Of a DNA stretch of 64,000 nucleotides, positions 14,353 to 22,177 are shown one piece after another. Under the pieces are notes generated by a model that saw only the letters and a list, made by a program, of their open reading frames with translations, was not told the DNA's origin and did no database searches. The first letter of the stretch is position 1. Each line of letters starts with the position of its first letter. A program made the translations under genes and the position numbers. Origin of the DNA: an uncultured Planctomycetota bacterium (GTDB taxonomy: Bacteria > Planctomycetota > Planctomycetia > Pirellulales > Lacipirellulaceae); contig CAVRBU010000005.1 of assembly GCA_963719315.1 (NCBI GenBank), positions 64,001 through 128,000 on the forward strand. Direction: 5' to 3'.

Positions 14353-15171
14353 ATGCGTACTTCGCGTCAGCTCTACGCGTGGCTAATCCTAGTCGGATTG
14401 TTCACCGCCCAAGGTCAGGCGAATTGGATGCAATTCGCCGGCGGGCCGGTTGTTTCGACCGGCACTTGGCCCGGCGGCTCGGCGCTCACCGGCACCGCGG
14501 CCGTCACCGCCAGCAACTTCATAAACGGCAACAGCTCGACGCCGTTCATCGGTCTTACGCCCGTGACGGTCGGGCCCGCGCTCTCGCCCGATTACGTTGC
14601 CACCACCTTACAGCCCAATCCAGGTAACTTGGTGACGCTCATCGGAACTCCTTACAACGACGCCGGAGATAAGTATCGCGTCGTGGTCGATTTTTCCGGC
14701 ACGAGTAGTAGCTCCAGCTCGGGCGTGCTGCCGGCCGGATCGATCTTCGCGATGATCGACCTCGACATCGTGGAGAACTACCGCAACATCAGGGCCGCGG
14801 ATGCGTCCAATGTTCCGATTACGACACCTTGGATCAACGGTCCCAACGGGTACTTCGATATGAACTCGCCGATGATCCCTCAGGGCTCGTTGATCCCGAA
14901 TCCGACGATTACAGGCCCGGTCGGCGGCGTCTATCAAATGTTCGGCGTGTCCTACAACTTCAACGTCGGCATGTGGTTGTTCAAAACGACGCAAGACGTT
15001 CGGAGGATCGCGTTCGACATGGAACGCGGCACTGGCAACAACGCGATCGGCGGCGGCGGCGCCGGCTGGGCGTTTTATGCGCCGCCGGGCGTTCCGGAGC
15101 CTACGTGCGGGGCTCTTATCGGCTGGTGTTTGTTCGTGGCGATCGGTCTACCAATCCGGAGGCGAAGATAA
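14353..15171 (+). CDS. PEP-CTERM protein
   Basis: GGAG RBS, signal peptide MRTSRQLYAWLILVGLFTAQGQA, VPEP-TM-RRRR. Confidence 0.85.
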   Translation: MRTSRQLYAWLILVGLFTAQGQANWMQFAGGPVVSTGTWPGGSALTGTAAVTASNFINGNSSTPFIGLTPVTVGPALSPDYVATTLQPNPGNLVTLIGTPYNDAGDKYRVVVDFSGTSSSSSSGVLPAGSIFAMIDLDIVENYRNIRAADASNVPITTPWINGPNGYFDMNSPMIPQGSLIPNPTITGPVGGVYQMFGVSYNFNVGMWLFKTTQDVRRIAFDMERGTGNNAIGGGGAGWAFYAPPGVPEPTCGALIGWCLFVAIGLPIRRRR

Positions 15172-15251
15172 TGTTCCGACCCAGTCGGTGATTCATGTCA
15201 GCACTCAACCCTAATTGTAATTCGAAAACCTTTTTCAACTGGAGAAATCTC

Positions 15252-16325
15252 ATGAACTTTTCGACCACACGAATGACTGTCTGGCTCGCCCTTGTGGCGG
15301 CGAGCACCATCCTCGCGACGCAGTCGCAAGGCGACCCGCTGCCGGGCCGCGATTTGCTGAAGTTCGATCAGCAACCAATGGATAAAACGCCCATTGTCGA
15401 TTCGACGGGCGTGACGATTGGTATCTACGGCGGCCACGACGAACTGAGCACGGCCTACGGTTTTGTAAATCCGAACGGCGTAATCACGGACTACAACGGC
15501 CCCTTCATGGCCGACGACTTCGCCGATAACCTCACCAGTCCCGTCGTTCACGTGAAGTGGTGGGGTTCCTATCTCAATAACAACAACGCCGCGTTCCCGC
15601 CGCAACCGCCTGTGCAGAAGTTTCTGATCGCATTCGAGACGGACGTACCGGCAGGTCCCGCTCCAAGCTTCAGCACGCCAGGCCAAGTGCTGCAGGCCGA
15701 CGTGGTAACCGCTGGACCATTATCTCCCGGCTCCGGCACCTTTACAGAAAAGCTCATCCGCGGCCCAGACCCGATCCTCGGTGAGTCGCTCTACGAGTAC
15801 AACGCCGAGTTGCATCTCGGTCACGAGTTCTTCGAAAAGAAGGACACCGTCTATTGGTTGAAGATTGCCGCGCTGGTTGATGTTCCGGCCGGAATCAACT
15901 TCCCGGTCAACATGCCACCACTAGGCATCACCCAATGGGGCTGGCACAACCGCGACTACACCATTAAGGACACACTTGCTTCGCCGGTCCCAGTGCCTGG
16001 CGAGTACGTTGACGGCGTGGTCGGCGCCAACAACATTTACCACTTCCAGGATGATGCCGTCACCGGCGACTTGCGATACACAACCGTGCCGGGCGCACCG
16101 AACTTCGGCGTCTTTCAACCGCCGCAGAACATGTCGCCGACAAACTATATGGGCTTTACCGACGGTCCCAACACCGGCCAGATTCCCGGTCAGCTTGGCA
16201 TCGACGGTCATTCCAAGGATCTCGCCTTCAGTTTGTACACGGTCGTGCCCGAGCCGGCTACATGCCTGCTACTCGTTTGCGGAACGCTGGGCTTAGGCTT
16301 AGTGCAACGCCGGCGTCGTGGTTGA
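15252..16325 (+). CDS. PEP-CTERM protein (ADDF...VHVKWWGSY domain)
   Basis: GGAG RBS, signal peptide, VPEPAT-TM-RRRR. Confidence 0.85.
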   Translation: MNFSTTRMTVWLALVAASTILATQSQGDPLPGRDLLKFDQQPMDKTPIVDSTGVTIGIYGGHDELSTAYGFVNPNGVITDYNGPFMADDFADNLTSPVVHVKWWGSYLNNNNAAFPPQPPVQKFLIAFETDVPAGPAPSFSTPGQVLQADVVTAGPLSPGSGTFTEKLIRGPDPILGESLYEYNAELHLGHEFFEKKDTVYWLKIAALVDVPAGINFPVNMPPLGITQWGWHNRDYTIKDTLASPVPVPGEYVDGVVGANNIYHFQDDAVTGDLRYTTVPGAPNFGVFQPPQNMSPTNYMGFTDGPNTGQIPGQLGIDGHSKDLAFSLYTVVPEPATCLLLVCGTLGLGLVQRRRRG

Positions 16326-16516: not shown

Positions 16517-18891
16517 ATGCGTGGATACGATCAATCGCATAGGGCTTCCACAATGCTACATCGCCTCTTTCTGGCCGCACTACTGATACTGTTTGCAGAA
16601 GCCACCGCCCGAGCTGCCAGCGTTGTCAGTTACGGCGCCAATGGAACCGATACAATTGACGACAAGGCGGCTTTTCAGAATTGCATCAATGCTAACACGC
16701 TGATCGACATTCCGGCTGGAACCTACTACATCTCGAAGAAGCTCAGCTTGCCCGCCAATCGCACGTTGCGCGGCGTCTTGAAGAATCCTGACGCGGTCAT
16801 ACTCAAGCTGGTCGGCGCGATTGATGGGATCGATGTCGGTCCAGCCGCGAACACGACCGTTCAAGATCTATCCCTTGACCGTGTGAGCCCCAATACGGCG
16901 ACTCGCGCGATGGTGTATTCGGGATCAAGCAACTTCACTGTGCGGCGTGTCAATGTGCTCAACCACCGTAGCACCGCACCTGCCATCATCGTCAATCTCG
17001 GAACCAAGGGCTTGATTGAGGATTCCTTGGTTAGCTACTATGGTTGGTTCGATACCGGGTTAAAACAAGTGCGAGGCGTCGGTATTCGACTATCCGATTG
17101 CGTAGACTCCGTCGTCCGAAACAACCGGGTGATTGAGAACCAAAACTTGATCCCAGCTAACCCCGTTTCTAATTTTTACCAGGCGGGAGGCATTGAAATC
17201 AGTGGTAATGCGCGGGCAGTCGTGGAATACAACACGGTCGTCACTGCAGGTAACGGAATCGACGCCGGCCAAGCCAGCGGCAGTGTGCTGCGATTCAACA
17301 CCGTCCGGAACGCGCACGAAGCTGGGATCAAACTAGTCAATGGTGCGCACGATAATACGATTTTCGCCAACGTGGTGGATAAGGTTGGCATTGCCAATAT
17401 TTGGTTGACCCCAGGCAGTTTAGGTCCCGAGCAAGCGCAATTTACAACAACACGATCCGGGGCAATGTCCTGCGTGGCACGGGACTAGGAATCGGTATCG
17501 GCTACTGGTCCGTGCCCAACTATCGGCCCAGTGGCATCGTCCTGGAGGGTTCCAATAATACGGACACCGTTGTGGCCCGAAATAATACGATTGCCAACAA
17601 CTCGATCCAGCCCACACGTAAGCTGGTCAATCCCGTCGAGGTATACAACGGATTCGCGTATGACCCCTATGGCAACGCGATTTCTGGGAACATGTTGCGG
17701 CCGATTGAGCGCGATGATTACTGTTTCTTTCGTCCTGGCAGCGGCGCCGGTTTGTGGCGCGCCGTGCTGAACGCCGGCGGTAGTCCGCCCGATATCGACG
17801 GCATAAGTGGCGACTTTGTGTTGAGCGGCCAGTTCGGCAATGGCTCCTCAAACGACCTTGCGTTGGTGGGCGACATCAATGGCGACGGAGCCGATGACCG
17901 CGTCGTCTACAACACAGCTACCAACGCGTGGATCTGGGACTCCGCGCCGCGGACTGGCTTCGCCGTGCGTGGCGGATTTGGTGATGGTGATGGTTCGGCT
18001 GAGCAAGCCTCGAACGCATTTGGCCAGCCCGGTGATGTGCCCTTGATCGGAGATATCAATGGCGACGGAGCTGCCGATCGCGTTATGTTTCGCCCAAGCG
18101 ATTCATCCTGGCACGTCGATCTGTCGACCATCCCAGTCTGGCCGTACAACCCGGTGACTCAGGGTTTTGGCGATGGAGTCGAAGATGTACTTGGCGGCAA
18201 CGCCATTTACAACGCCGGGGGAGTGGTGATCGGCCAGGTCGCACTGTCCGATTATGACGGCAACGGAATTGCCGATCGAACCCTATTCAGCGCCGGCGGA
18301 TTTTACCGGTCACTTAATCCGGGCGGCGGCGCGTGGAGCACAGGCGGCGATAACGCAAGCGTGGGAGTCGGGCTAGGCGATGCCGACTTTATTCCGCCTG
18401 CAGAACTCGGAGATTTCGATGGCGACGGCCTCAGCGACAACATCGCTTGGAACGGCATCGGCAATTCTACGGTTTTCGCACGCCTCTCTACGACCTTGCC
18501 CCCCTGGAGTGAGACGCCGACCGTCAGTGGCAACCACTACGGTGACCCCAATCAAGACACCTCCTTCTTCGTAGGCGACTTCGATCTGAGCGAGTTCCTG
18601 CTTGCGCCCTTGCCACCCGGAGATTACAACGCAGATGGCAGCGTCGATGCGGCCGATTATGTGATTTGGCGGGAGACAATGGGCCGGAACGGGACGGGTC
18701 TAGCTGCCGACGGTAACGGCGACGGCTCGGTAGATGACGCCGACTATGATTTGTGGAGGACGCACTTCGGTGAAACGATGGCATCGGCCTTCAGTTCTAC
18801 GGCGGGAAATAACGTGCCTGAACCATGTAGCCCTGTTTTCCTACTCCTCACCTTGGTTTCATCCAAGCTGCGGCGCCGCTCAGAATGCTGA
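16517..18891 (+). CDS. Secreted beta-helix (pectin-lyase-like) + FG-GAP-like repeats + dockerin-like + PEP-CTERM protein, frameshifted near 17420
   Basis: YGANGTDTIDDKAAFQ...IPAGTY beta-helix start; GDINGDGADD repeats; GDYNADGSVDAADY; VPEP; two overlapping ORFs. Confidence 0.75.
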
Positions 18892-18907
18892 GTTGAATTG
18901 ATTATCT

Positions 18908-19177
18908 CCCGCTGCCGGGGCGCGATTTGCTGAAGTTCGATCAGCAACCAATGGTTAAAACGCTCATTGTCGATTCGACGGGCGTGACGATTGGTATCTA
19001 CGGCGGCCACGACGAACTGAGCACCGCCTACGGCTTTCCCACCCCGAATGGCGTCATCACCGATTGCAGCGGCCCAATTATGGCCGACGACTTCCTCACG
19101 AGCCCCGTCGTCCACGTCAAGTGGTGGGGTTCTTACCTCTACAACAACAATGCCGCGGTCCCGCCGCAACCGCCGGT
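18908..19177 (+). pseudogene. Truncated diverged copy of the 5' part of the 15252 PEP-CTERM gene
   Basis: Aligns by eye to ~15335-15613 with a 9-nt deletion; no signal peptide, no C-terminus. Confidence 0.85.
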
Positions 19178-19338
19178 TGCGTTGGTTTTCCGCCAAACAG
19201 CCACCGTTTAGCCGCGACATGAAGAGGATCGCTCCGCCCTTTTTCCATGCAATTCCTTTGTTGCCATTCGCCCGCCGCTTTCCCTACAATACAACGCATC
19301 GCCGCCCGCTCACTTGCGGACTCAACGCGACACCCGCC

Positions 19339-19746
19339 ATGCGTCGAACCCTTCACAAACTCCTGACTTACACGCTGCTGGCCACATATGCCGGCATTTC
19401 GTTGCTTGGCCAGGGTTTGCATTGGCTCACGCCCGACGACTGCCACCACCACGGTCTGAGTGTCGTCGCCTGCACCGCACACGACCACGATCATTGCGTT
19501 CACCGCGAGATTGAAGCTCAAAGCTCGGCCCGCCCAATCCTAATCGCCAGTGGCCGAATCCCCGATTCGCACACCTGCGAAATCTGCGAGTTCCTGATCC
19601 AAGCGGTCAGCCAACCGCCGCAAGTCGACGCGACGCCTGACCTGCACGTTCTCATCGCCGACCTGCCTTGCGACGCGCAGGGCCTCTATTCGCCAACCAT
19701 TCTCGGCCTCCACGCCGCCCGCGGTCCGCCGCCGTTTCTCGCCTAA
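19339..19746 (+). CDS. DUF2946/CruR-like protein (His-rich, CxxC, C-terminal RGPP)
   Basis: Hydrophobic N-terminus, CHHH..HDHDHC, HTCEIC, ends LHAARGPPPFLA. Confidence 0.75.
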   Translation: MRRTLHKLLTYTLLATYAGISLLGQGLHWLTPDDCHHHGLSVVACTAHDHDHCVHREIEAQSSARPILIASGRIPDSHTCEICEFLIQAVSQPPQVDATPDLHVLIADLPCDAQGLYSPTILGLHAARGPPPFLA

Positions 19747-20002
19747 GACTCACTCTTCCACTGGAGGAGAGCTGGGTTGCTCGAAACTCGCCGATGCGAG
19801 TTGAGGGTGCTTTCATCACGATGCGCCTTACCTCACTTCGACGAAGTCTTGCGTCGATGTAGCCTCGCGTTCCGTTTAGTAGCAGGCATGTTTCGCATGC
19901 CGTCACCATGCGCGCCCACACATCCCCGCGGGCTGAATTCGCACTGCCAATTCGCATTGCGCTGCCCCTGTGCTCGCGTCACACCATATATAAGGACCCG
20001 TC

Positions 20003-20914
20003 ATGCGCCGTAATTCTGTCTTCACCGTACATGGCTTTACGCTTGTAGAACTCTTGGTCGTCATCGCCATCATCGGCGTGCTGGTCGCCCTTTTGCTGCC
20101 GGCAGTTCAAGCGGCCCGCGAAGCCGCCCGACGCACACAGTGCAAAAACAACCTGAAGCAGATCGGTCTCGCGCTGCACAACTACGAAGCGGCCCGCAAG
20201 ACGTTTCCGCCGGGTTACATTTCCACCGCCACGACCATCAACGGCCCTGGTACCGGCCCTGGCTGGGGTTGGGGTGCGCACATCCTGCCCTATCTGGAAG
20301 AATCATCGCTGCCGGTCGACATGAAGCGCCCCATCACCGACCCCATCCACGATCAAGTGCGCGTGGTGTCGTTGGCCGCCTTCCGCTGCCCTTCCGATTC
20401 GGTCGAACTGCCGGTGTTCCCCGTTCAAAACGCGTCCGGCAGCACGCTCACCCAAGTCGCGTTCGGCAATTACGTCGGCGTCGCCGGCACGTTCGAAGTC
20501 AGCGTTTTTCCCGACGAAGGCACCGGCATCTTGTTCCGCAACCGCGCTATCGCCGTTAAGCAAATCACCGATGGATTGAGTCACACGATCATGGTCAGCG
20601 AACGCGCCAGCCGCCAATCGCCGCAAACCACCTGGGTTGGCGCGATCACCGACGCGAGCGTGCCGCCCAAACATCCCGGCTATGACACCGAAGGCCCACC
20701 TGTACTGGTACTCACCAACACCGGCACCGCCGCCGACGGCCGCGTCCCCAACAACACGCTTGACCACGTCGAAGACTCGAACAGCGACCACCCGCAAGGC
20801 GTCCACCTGATGTTCGCCGACGGCTCGGTCCAAGCCATCAACAACGACATCGACCCGCAAGTCTGGGTCGCCCTCGGCACGCGCGCCGGCGGCGAATCCA
20901 ACGGCGCGTATTGA
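20003..20914 (+). CDS. DUF1559 protein
   Basis: [56 protein letters not shown]. Confidence 0.95.
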
Positions 20915-21013
20915 AATGATATGGTATCAGCCTTGGTGCCATGCCTTCGGCCGGATGCTGTCCCTGCCTCCGAAGTCTTTTTTAGATGCTCGCAATTTGC
21001 GGAAGTTGTAGTT

Positions 21014-21053
21014 GTAGGCGGGGTCGAGCTACGCGAGACCCACCATGATTCTC
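21014..21053 (+). repeat. GTAG-type REP-like element
   Basis: GTAGGCGGGGTCGAGCTACGCGAGACCCACCATGATTCTC; inverted relative at ~36851-36890. Confidence 0.6.
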
Positions 21054-21169
21054 TCGATCTCTACATTTTGAAGAACTGATTGGCCTCCACCCACCAAGAT
21101 TCAGCTATGTAAACTTGCGTCCACTCAGGTATTATTGGCGCGAACTCCTCACCCACTCGGATCCTTACC

Positions 21170-22177
21170 GTGGCCACTGTCCTCGCAACATTTCTGATCT
21201 GCGCCGCGGTCATCATTGTCGCCGGCAGCTTTCTTACGCGGTTCGCGGACGCAATTGCCGAGCTGACTGGCCTGGGGCGACTTGTGATCGGCAGCGTACT
21301 ACTCGCGGGCGTCACCTCACTTCCCGAATTAACGGTCGACATCTCGGCTGTGCGAATGGGATTGGCCGACTTGGCCGTCGGCGATTTGCTCGGCAGCAGT
21401 CTTATGAACCTGCTGATCCTCGCGATTCTTGACCTGTCCCATCGGTCTCGCGGCACCATGCTTTCTCGGCAATCCGCAGCCCATGCCTTATCGGGGCTGG
21501 TGTGTGCTTCCCTGGCAACCGTGGTCGCGTTGGGCCTCCTCACCGGACAGGCGCTGGCACCATACACCCTCTTCGGATTGGGTCCAGGAATCGTTTTGGT
21601 GGCGATCGGCTATACATTCGGCGCCCGCGTGATTTATCTGGACCAGCGGATTTCGATCCGCACCGCGGCCGAACAGAACGAGGCAGAACCTTCGCCGCCC
21701 GCCGCCGCCGGACTCGGCCGCACCTTGCTCGGCTTTGGCGTGTGTGCACTCGTGATTGTTCTAGCAGGCCCGCGGCTTGCTTCGGCCGCCGGCGATTTGG
21801 CCACGCGCACCGGCCTCGGCAATACATTCATGGGCACCACGCTGGTAGCGTTCTCCACATCACTGCCAGAACTCGTCTCGATGATCGCTGCCTTGCGAAT
21901 GGGCGCCGCCGATCTCGCGATCGGAAACGTCTTTGGAAGCAACGCCTTCAACATGCTTCTACTCGTGCCGCTCGACGTCGTTCATCGCGGCTCGCTGTTG
22001 GCCGATGTTTCCGCGAAGCATTCAATTACCTGCCTGGCTGCGATCCTTGCCACTCAAGTTGCGGTCATGGGCCAGCTCTACCAGGTCGAACGCCGCTCGC
22101 GGCTGATCGAGCCGGACGCCTGGCTCGTAATCCTGATCGTCGCAAGCGCCCTCGGATTGATCTATTACTTACCCTGA
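21170..22177 (+). CDS. Na+/Ca2+ antiporter family (CaCA, YrbG-like)
   Basis: Two alpha-repeats GVTSLPEL / FSTSLPEL and GNVFGSNAFN; multiple TM segments. Confidence 0.9.
   Translation: MATVLATFLICAAVIIVAGSFLTRFADAIAELTGLGRLVIGSVLLAGVTSLPELTVDISAVRMGLADLAVGDLLGSSLMNLLILAILDLSHRSRGTMLSRQSAAHALSGLVCASLATVVALGLLTGQALAPYTLFGLGPGIVLVAIGYTFGARVIYLDQRISIRTAAEQNEAEPSPPAAAGLGRTLLGFGVCALVIVLAGPRLASAAGDLATRTGLGNTFMGTTLVAFSTSLPELVSMIAALRMGAADLAIGNVFGSNAFNMLLLVPLDVVHRGSLLADVSAKHSITCLAAILATQVAVMGQLYQVERRSRLIEPDAWLVILIVASALGLIYYLP

Follow-up and report, generated by a model that had tools for sequence, protein, structure and literature searches.

A candidate CruR/CutF-type arrest leader upstream of a DUF1559 gene in a member of the Lacipirellulaceae

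What is a short open reading frame (ORF) with a hydrophobic N-terminus, a histidine (His)-rich stretch, a CxxC motif and an RGPP motif close to its stop codon doing in front of a gene for a pilin-like DUF1559 protein? We examined this question on a 64,000-nucleotide (nt) stretch of DNA from an uncultured planctomycete of the family Lacipirellulaceae (positions 64,001 to 128,000 of contig CAVRBU010000005.1, assembly GCA_963719315.1), hereafter the window; its own genome of 5.93 Mb is referred to as G000. An earlier note on this DNA had suggested a ribosome-arrest leader that places the DUF1559 gene under metal-responsive translational control. By analogy with the two studied systems of this kind, CruR of Bordetella pertussis and CutF of Rhodobacter capsulatus, we consider it likely that the ORF at 19339..19746 (+) is an arrest-type leader standing before a dedicated DUF1559 gene, and it probably switches that gene. 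Here we describe the leader family, its invariant motifs and the constant distance between two of them, its synteny with DUF1559 genes, the position of a promoter-like site, a bubble of C over G at the 3' end of the leader and the presence of Rho in the genome. The type of leader is known, and the pairing of RAPP leaders with DUF1559 has already been catalogued in survey data. New here are the test of the motif distance, the bridge to the DUF2946 family through intermediate sequences, the recognition of two target classes, the contrast between promoter region and spacer, and the C-over-G bubble.

The leader ORF and its family

Translation of 19339..19746 (P0001) agrees with the ORF as the earlier note had described it, with 135 amino acids (aa) and a stop codon, a hydrophobic N-terminus, a His-rich stretch and CEIC. 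The protein opens with MRRTLHK, followed by an uncharged stretch. Its His-rich segment, residues 28-55 (19420..19503), contains eight His (H28, H36-38, H48, H50, H52 and H55) and three cysteines (Cys; C35, C45 and C53), and the remaining Cys are at positions 80, 83 and 110. C80 and C83 belong to H78-T-C80-E-I-C83 (19570..19587), an invariant HxCxxC that is the candidate ligand site and is followed by a predicted helix at residues 81-90. The C-terminus reads HAARGPPPFLA. Thus the ARGPP said to be terminal is present but not quite at the end: RGPP, the candidate arrest motif, occupies residues 128-131 (19720..19731), 44 residues past C83, and the non-polar tail PFLA and a TAA stop come after it (19732..19746).

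An AlphaFold model computed with the family alignment described below (A1) contains helices only at residues 2-30 and 81-90, with a mean predicted local distance difference test (pLDDT) value of 65.9 and a predicted template modelling (pTM) score of 0.27. Helix 2-30 (19342..19428) reaches pLDDT values of 84, 95 and 80 in successive blocks, and the remainder is of low confidence. Judged from its charged n-region, its uncharged core, G24-x-G26 and the AlphaFold helix, the N-terminus is probably a Sec signal or a membrane anchor.

The leader ORF is a real, conserved gene. A word-indexed protein search returned 40 homologues at E ≤ 0.01, 127-175 aa in length and almost throughout of metagenome origin. 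They are 38-64% identical to the leader, except for the window's own longer gene call (P0002, 100%), which is a 175-aa version of it. It is unlikely that the longer call is the true form, because the homologues begin at the MR of the 135-aa form and the promoter-like site discussed below lies inside the extension. In A1, the alignment of these 40 homologues, only 16 columns are invariant: L14, Y17, G24, G26, L27, H28, H38, H78, C80, C83, F85, L86, R128, G129, P130 and P131. Conservation of H36 and H37 is 90% or higher; elsewhere the His-rich segment varies in length among the homologues, yet is still rich in His.

A profile built from A1 and run against 1.84 billion cluster representatives gave 396 matches at E ≤ 1e-3 and 82 at E ≤ 1e-10, mostly of 120-160 aa. 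Motifs and Pfam families were counted on the best 145 non-query matches of the 396. RGPP is present within 15 residues of the C-terminus in 114 of these 145 relatives and RAPP in 19; most of the 12 that have neither look truncated or mis-called. CxxC is present in 141. The R[AG]PP motif is followed by 1-11 residues, most often four. Among the loci, the RGPP codons differ synonymously (CGC/CGT/CGG/CGA, GGT/GGC/GGA/GGG, CCG/CCC/CCA/CCT), which argues for selection on the peptide.

The kinship with DUF2946-type ORFs that had been suggested for the leader comes through by way of intermediates and not by direct comparison. The DUF2946 model, PF11162, is matched by 31 of the 145 relatives at E ≤ 0.1, and 11 of the 145 reach at least its gathering score of 23.7 bits (maximum 34.0); DUF2946 is by far the commonest recurring family among their Pfam matches. 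The ESM Atlas also returned a DUF2946 cluster at a score of 0.95, with 11 of 30 matches, which we treat as a lead only. In addition, the leader carries what amounts to a ruler: the distance from CxxC to R[AG]PP is 44 residues in P0001 and in 40 of 40 A1 members, and 42-45 residues in 169 of the 171 proteins that have both motifs. According to Roy et al. 2022, CXXC and RAPP are the defining motifs of DUF2946, their distance is 45 residues in CruR and constant within 1-2 residues across more than 2000 DUF2946 proteins, and "a few" CruR homologues occur in Planctomycetes (PMC9426467). Because of the intermediate sequences, the ESM Atlas lead and the shared ruler, we take the leader family to be a branch of the DUF2946 superfamily that has diverged, mostly bears RGPP and lies beyond the reach of the Pfam model. 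The current DUF2946 model would then miss a large RGPP-bearing branch.

Two classes of dedicated DUF1559 targets

The leader is followed by a spacer, given earlier as about 255 nt and in fact 256 nt long (19747..20002), and then by a gene for a 303-aa DUF1559/H-X9-DG prepilin-type protein (20003..20914, +). The gene has a Shine-Dalgarno (SD) sequence, AAGGA, at 19992..19996, 6 nt before its ATG at 20003; in the class I relatives defined below the SD is AGGAC, in AT-rich surroundings. The product bears out the earlier assignment to DUF1559, with a match to PF07596 at 3.9e-53 over the full profile (positions 1-268). It also matches PF07963 (N_methyl) at 27 bits, TIGR02532 (prepilin GFxxxE) at 28.3 bits (cut-off 16.3) and TIGR04294 (H-X9-DG) at 24.7 bits (cut-off 19).

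We then surveyed whether leader and DUF1559 gene belong together, as the earlier note had supposed. The A1 searches yielded 43 loci. Five were duplicates (L017, L032, L033, L034, L036), and three more were removed for a weak partial match with no motifs (L005), a match of 24 residues (L024) or a contig end inside the leader (L020). L016, L018 and L022 were set aside because only 328, 201 and 270 nt, respectively, follow the stop codon, with no pilin motif there. In all 32 of the distinct testable loci that remained, a pilin-like DUF1559 gene lies downstream on the same strand, behind a spacer of 77-353 nt. Every one of these genes encodes a prepilin-type N-terminus, and wherever Pfam was run both DUF1559 and N_methyl were found.

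The same linkage appears within G000, where DUF1559 has a background of about 61 Pfam matches in the whole genome. A scan for ORFs of at most 260 aa from the start codon, with an uncharged N-terminal 17-mer and R[AG]PP no more than 12 residues from the stop, found four leader ORFs, and all four precede DUF1559 genes. They are the leader of the window, one at C2:254272-254643 (RAPP) and two on contig C4 (RGPP); none of them serves the Sec, TonB or copper genes seen with such leaders in other phyla. The leader family is present in 15 of 23 other genomes of the window's genus. In a sample of the phylum, leader matches were found in 5 of 401 genomes, a count that includes G000 and one false match.

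The downstream proteins fall into two orthologous groups, class I and class II, and the leaders split into matching classes. Class I targets, that of the window among them, are about 300 aa long, cover the whole DUF1559 profile and are 72-79% identical between genomes (alignment A3), which makes them much more conserved than their leaders. Among their invariant residues are H255, E257, D258, H263 and D273. Class II targets, of 231-256 aa, match only the first 60 or so profile positions and have a different conserved C-terminus. Because the targets form two orthologous classes, it appears that the leaders serve dedicated pilin-like genes and not arbitrary DUF1559 members.

Part of this association can be found in published survey data. 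In the source table of Fig. 4B of Fujiwara et al. 2025, "DUF1559 domain-containing protein" is one of the 30 products with the highest enrichment downstream of RAPP upstream ORFs (uORFs), with 112 RAPP against 68 AAPP uORFs (6.46-fold, adjusted p 1e-31), and DUF1559 occurs 0 times in the main text (PMC12992588). A figure legend of Ozturk et al. 2023 lists "PILIN" as a signal class among downstream proteins (PMC9973294). Full-text literature searches found no study linking DUF1559 to arrest peptides or describing the pairing of such a leader with a DUF1559 gene.

The three paralogous loci of G000 have some features of their own. On C4, the leaders at C4:100503-101015 and C4:110705-111223 (L046:4534-5013 and 14742-15221) are 160 aa long, and each precedes a DUF1559 gene. 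Both read H-x-C-P-[IL]-L, with one Cys instead of CxxC, and their distance to RGPP is still 44 residues. Behind the first, the DUF1559 gene is interrupted by an in-frame stop past the pilin helix, and rve, Mu-transposase and DDE transposase ORFs come next. The C2 leader (L047:4273-4641) is of the RAPP type, with CPIC and a 43-residue ruler, and heads a short class-II-like pilin gene, two ORFs of 294 and 394 aa with no Pfam match and a further DUF1559 gene. L009 and L012 have a leader-pilin-two-ORF layout that resembles the C2 locus.

The arrest model, its coupling route and its rivals

The RAPP/RGPP arrest peptides, a class defined by peptidyl-tRNA arrest at the motif that is refractory to EF-P, include ApdA, ApdP and ApcA and seven Streptomyces lividans uORFs. 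They are small secretory or membrane proteins, as the leader product here probably is, and like it they have the motif near the C-terminus and are encoded upstream of a gene on the same strand (PMC12992588). Of the motifs tested in four arrest-peptide backgrounds, including those of ApdP, ApcA and SecM, RGPP is reported to give the most robust arrest, and this Gly-for-Ala form stalls more strongly than RAPP (PMC12992588). Proteomes strongly avoid RGPP and RAPP; for RGPP in Planctomycetota the mean bias is 0.15 (PMC12992588 supplement).

The closest points of comparison are the studied DUF2946 members. CruR (Bp2923), the prototype, is encoded upstream of bfrG in B. pertussis. As at the present locus, the uORF product is small and poorly structured and carries CXXC plus R-x-P-P three to four residues from the C-terminus, the uORF stands first in its unit before a long spacer (162 bp in B. 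pertussis, 256 nt here; long spacers are typical of cruR homologues), and a C>G bubble covers the uORF 3' end in a genome that encodes Rho (PMC9426467). CruR is exported, as the leader product probably is, and the target of cruR is a TonB-dependent Cu transporter (PMC9426467), where the leader here precedes a DUF1559 pilin-like gene. CruR has RAPP where P0001 has RGPP, and P0001 has the extra invariant residues H28, H38 and H78. The CutF-cutO pair of R. capsulatus is comparable in that a nascent chain targeted by Sec carries a Cys motif together with a proline stall motif at its C-terminus, and CutF must stand in cis directly upstream of its target; there a stem-loop shields the downstream SD (PMC9973294; 10.1101/2025.02.05.636593), and no such shielding is detectable at the window locus. 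The target of CutF is a multicopper oxidase, unlike the DUF1559 target here (PMC9973294). In SecM-secA of Escherichia coli, the next gene is controlled by an arrest at the C-terminus, a few codons short of the stop, as is proposed for the leader; SecM senses export force and unmasks an SD, whereas the present leader has no detectable SD shielding. TnaC-tnaA of E. coli likewise uses a C-terminal arrest to control the next gene, in this case with Rho blocked over a long spacer. What TnaC senses is free tryptophan within the tunnel, and it has neither an export signal nor a Cys/His site.

By analogy with these systems we infer that the ribosome stalls, which ligand is sensed, in which direction control runs and that Rho takes part. 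Leader and DUF1559 gene would share a transcript that starts at a promoter immediately upstream of the leader, and the N-terminal helix would bring the nascent leader chain to the membrane during translation. The ribosome would pause at R128-G-P-P131. A ribosome on RGPP would have C83 about 45-47 residues away from its peptidyl-transferase centre and the His-rich part 75-100 residues out; because of this distance and the general length of the exit tunnel, C83 would just have emerged. During the pause, H78-x-C80-x-x-C83, 44 residues back, would therefore be just outside the tunnel, with the His-rich part farther out. A ligand on the His and Cys residues would alter the duration of the pause, and this ligand would most likely be a thiophilic or His-binding metal such as Cu, with redox state as an alternative. 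From a ruler of this kind in CruR it has been argued that folding induced by the ligand close to the exit exerts a pull on the chain (PMC9426467). The paused or released ribosome would then set DUF1559 expression across the 256-nt spacer. The likeliest route would be that of CruR, in which the stalled ribosome would shield the C-rich, G-poor 3' end of the leader from Rho so that transcription continues, and release of the ribosome would let Rho terminate within the spacer.

Two sets of observations bear on this scheme. Firstly, a promoter-like TTGCCA-18 nt-TACAAT is present at 19261..19290 (+), ends 48 nt before the leader ATG and is the sole plus-strand sigma-70-like match in 18800-21300. In 18 of 26 loci the pattern TTGNNN-N16-18-TANRAT occurs no more than 110 nt upstream of the leader, compared with a mean of 0.10 loci after shuffling, and it is in none of the 26 spacers (4,554 nt). 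The absence of the pattern from all 26 spacers argues against an independent spacer promoter, which the earlier note had given as an outcome that would speak against its proposal. Secondly, a rut-like C>G bubble lies at 19638..19767 (+), over the 3' end of the leader and the first 21 nt of the spacer. Its GC skew of -0.294 places it within the bottom 0.8% of 5000 coding-strand windows of 130 nt drawn from 1,865 long ORFs of G000. C exceeds G in this region in 26 of 31 loci (mean skew -0.145), and Rho is encoded in G000.

In four loci (L006, L009, L013, L026) only 12-15 nt separate the promoter-like -10 element from the leader ATG, and therefore very short or leaderless 5' ends may occur there.

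Several observations weigh against the reading of the ORF as a metal-sensing arrest leader of the CruR/CutF type. P0001 has no Pfam match at E ≤ 1 and no NCBIfam match, it falls below the gathering score of PF11162, and the hidden Markov model search with PF11162 likewise gave no match at E ≤ 1 across the whole of G000. The N-terminal helix is conserved far beyond the needs of a plain signal peptide, and this could reflect a role for the protein once it is finished. Among the genes near the window locus, its three paralogues and the longer related loci scanned, no metal-related Pfam family turned up, so the role in metal handling that had been proposed for the DUF1559 protein has no support from its neighbourhood; the metal reading of the leader draws on just two things, its His and Cys residues and the analogy. 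The promoter pattern was picked by eye, post hoc, from the same upstream regions in which it was counted, although the spacer control is fair. An internal spacer promoter could still exist, as planctomycete promoters are poorly known. The C-richness of the leader 3' end is partly a by-product of Pro, Ala and His codons, and the best C>G window within the spacer itself is unremarkable, being reached by 10.75% of random segments. No conserved block is shared by the window spacer and the spacers of the class I relatives. The region from the leader end through the spacer, which the earlier note had singled out for RNA folding, has no unusual structure: the minimum free energy (MFE) of the whole spacer has a z of -0.06, and pairing of the SD-AUG window is 0.40, against 0.48 in dinucleotide shuffles of the upstream sequence (z -0.67), so that the SD is no more occluded than in shuffles.

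A different view of the signal is that the leader reports something other than metal, either, in the manner of SecM, MifM and VemP, its own export or insertion into the membrane during translation, or the oxidative folding of its own Cys, and so tunes a pilin-like protein that shares that machinery. The downstream protein is itself a substrate of Sec and prepilin peptidase, and the invariant Y17, G24, G26, L27 and H28 of the N-terminal helix would suit a specific contact with the insertion machinery. RAPP/RGPP uORFs are reported to be enriched before sec and DsbA/thioredoxin genes (PMC12992588). The lack of metal genes near the loci scanned also fits, and the two C4 paralogues of G000 keep ruler and RGPP intact with one Cys of the CxxC. 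However, the invariant H28, H38 and H78, the H36 and H37 conserved to at least 90% and the His-rich tract are typical of metal sites and would be unnecessary in a pure monitor of export. The family is also tied to DUF2946, of which the two studied members, CruR and CutF, both respond to Cu (PMC9426467; PMC9973294). We think a non-metal signal unlikely.

Alternatively, the 135-aa product may be no leader peptide at all but a stable small membrane or periplasmic protein, a metal-binding partner, chaperone or anchor of the DUF1559 protein, with RGPP as a structural or sorting motif. The protein is indeed conserved over its entire length, and strongly so in the N-terminal helix, and the two matching classes of leaders and targets are what co-evolving partners would show. 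Against a finished protein speak the AlphaFold fold, limited to two helices at a pTM of 0.27, the invariance of a motif that proteomes avoid, its fixed distance from CxxC and its place 1-11 residues from the stop. The products of CruR and CutF are described as undetectable in vivo (PMC9426467; PMC9973294), and the non-polar tail at the C-terminus looks like a signal for degradation, as has been argued for CruR (PMC9426467). On balance a stable protein seems distinctly improbable.

Very doubtful, finally, is coupling by unmasking of the ribosome-binding site as in SecM-secA and CutF-cutO, with the RGPP codons (19720-19727) pairing with the SD and start (19994-20000) until a stalled ribosome frees the SD: exactly this long-range helix is in the MFE structure of 19715-20030, with a summed pair probability between SD window and stall footprint of 0.46 in the window and 0.38 in L008, but 10 of the 17 loci analysed give values of 0.00-0.03, with no covariation, the class I Gly codon is GGC where the helix needs GGU and the helix is thus not kept, SD occlusion equals that of shuffles, and the spacers (77-353 nt) are unrelated in sequence and unconserved in length. 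This helix was rejected as a candidate.

Returning to the arrest leader as we favour it, a CruR-like Rho route fits best of the four coupling ideas considered, and within that model we would give it roughly an even chance. A CutF/SecM-type hairpin that shields the SD was rejected, as SD pairing is no higher than in shuffles; across 31 loci the mean z of SD occlusion is -0.14, with z above 1 in five and below -1 in six. An intrinsic terminator was rejected for the window, whose spacer lacks the class II hairpin and GUUUC, and overall hairpin strength is barely above that of shuffles. The strongest hairpin in the 100 nt after the stop averages -16.2 kcal/mol against -14.7 kcal/mol in shuffles, a weak signal, and it beats all 8 shuffles in 9 of 31 loci. 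An Rfam scan of 18800-21300 found no family, just a chance-level snoRNA match (E 0.26).

The class II spacers have an element of their own, seen in L008, L009, L010, L011, L014, L019, L025, L028 and L030. Within about +10 to +60 after the stop they contain a GC-rich hairpin, some 10-35 nt past the stop, then GUUUC and then UGCGC(G); by RNAalifold the hairpin has 11 pairs, 4 of them with a compensatory change. TGCGCG is present in 20 of 31 spacers, compared with 2.4 in mononucleotide shuffles. This element looks like an attenuator of the intrinsic-terminator type or a protein-binding site.

Wider reading and upstream neighbourhood

DUF1559 is one of the largest families of Planctomycetota and an orphan, with 61 Pfam matches in G000 alone. 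A leader that acts in cis and combines a readable sensor (His/Cys), a switch (RGPP) and a conserved target would offer an experimental handle on it, as knowing what relieves or strengthens the stall would reveal the condition under which the pilin-like protein is wanted. Such a leader would also extend the CruR/CutF principle to a phylum and a class of target outside copper homeostasis.

More tentatively, the leader may be a nascent-chain sensor of periplasmic metal or redox state that gates an envelope module made up of a specific DUF1559 orthologue and, in many relatives, of upstream DUF7901/PEP-CTERM surface proteins; we think this rather unlikely. If true, at least two DUF1559 orthologous groups would be fibres of the surface or periplasm under metal regulation, which could serve, for instance, to capture or detoxify metals or to attach in a metal-dependent way, and nascent-chain arrest would be a main planctomycete way of controlling these DUF1559 proteins.

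The upstream part of this module is a remnant in the window. A 94-aa ORF directly upstream of the leader (18927..19211, +) is what is left of a DUF7901/PEP-CTERM gene; against the 344-aa protein at L006:2793-3824 it shows 47% identity over residues 36-112 of that protein (E 7e-19). In the window, 3 kb upstream, a homologue of full length is encoded at 15252-16313 (+; 55% identity over 362 aa). An intact DUF7901 gene is directly upstream of the leader in L006, L007, L013, L014, L016, L020 (two copies), L025, L026, L027, L029 and L035. Because of this recurrent position, one or more PEP-CTERM proteins, the leader and the pilin-like gene may form a wider module.

Between the full-length homologue and the remnant, window 17401-18891 (+) encodes a 496-aa protein with a dockerin-type repeat and a PEP-CTERM-like tail (VPEP, a hydrophobic stretch and RRR). 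This gene overlaps by 88 nt the end of that for a beta-helix (NosD-like) protein at 16517-17488.

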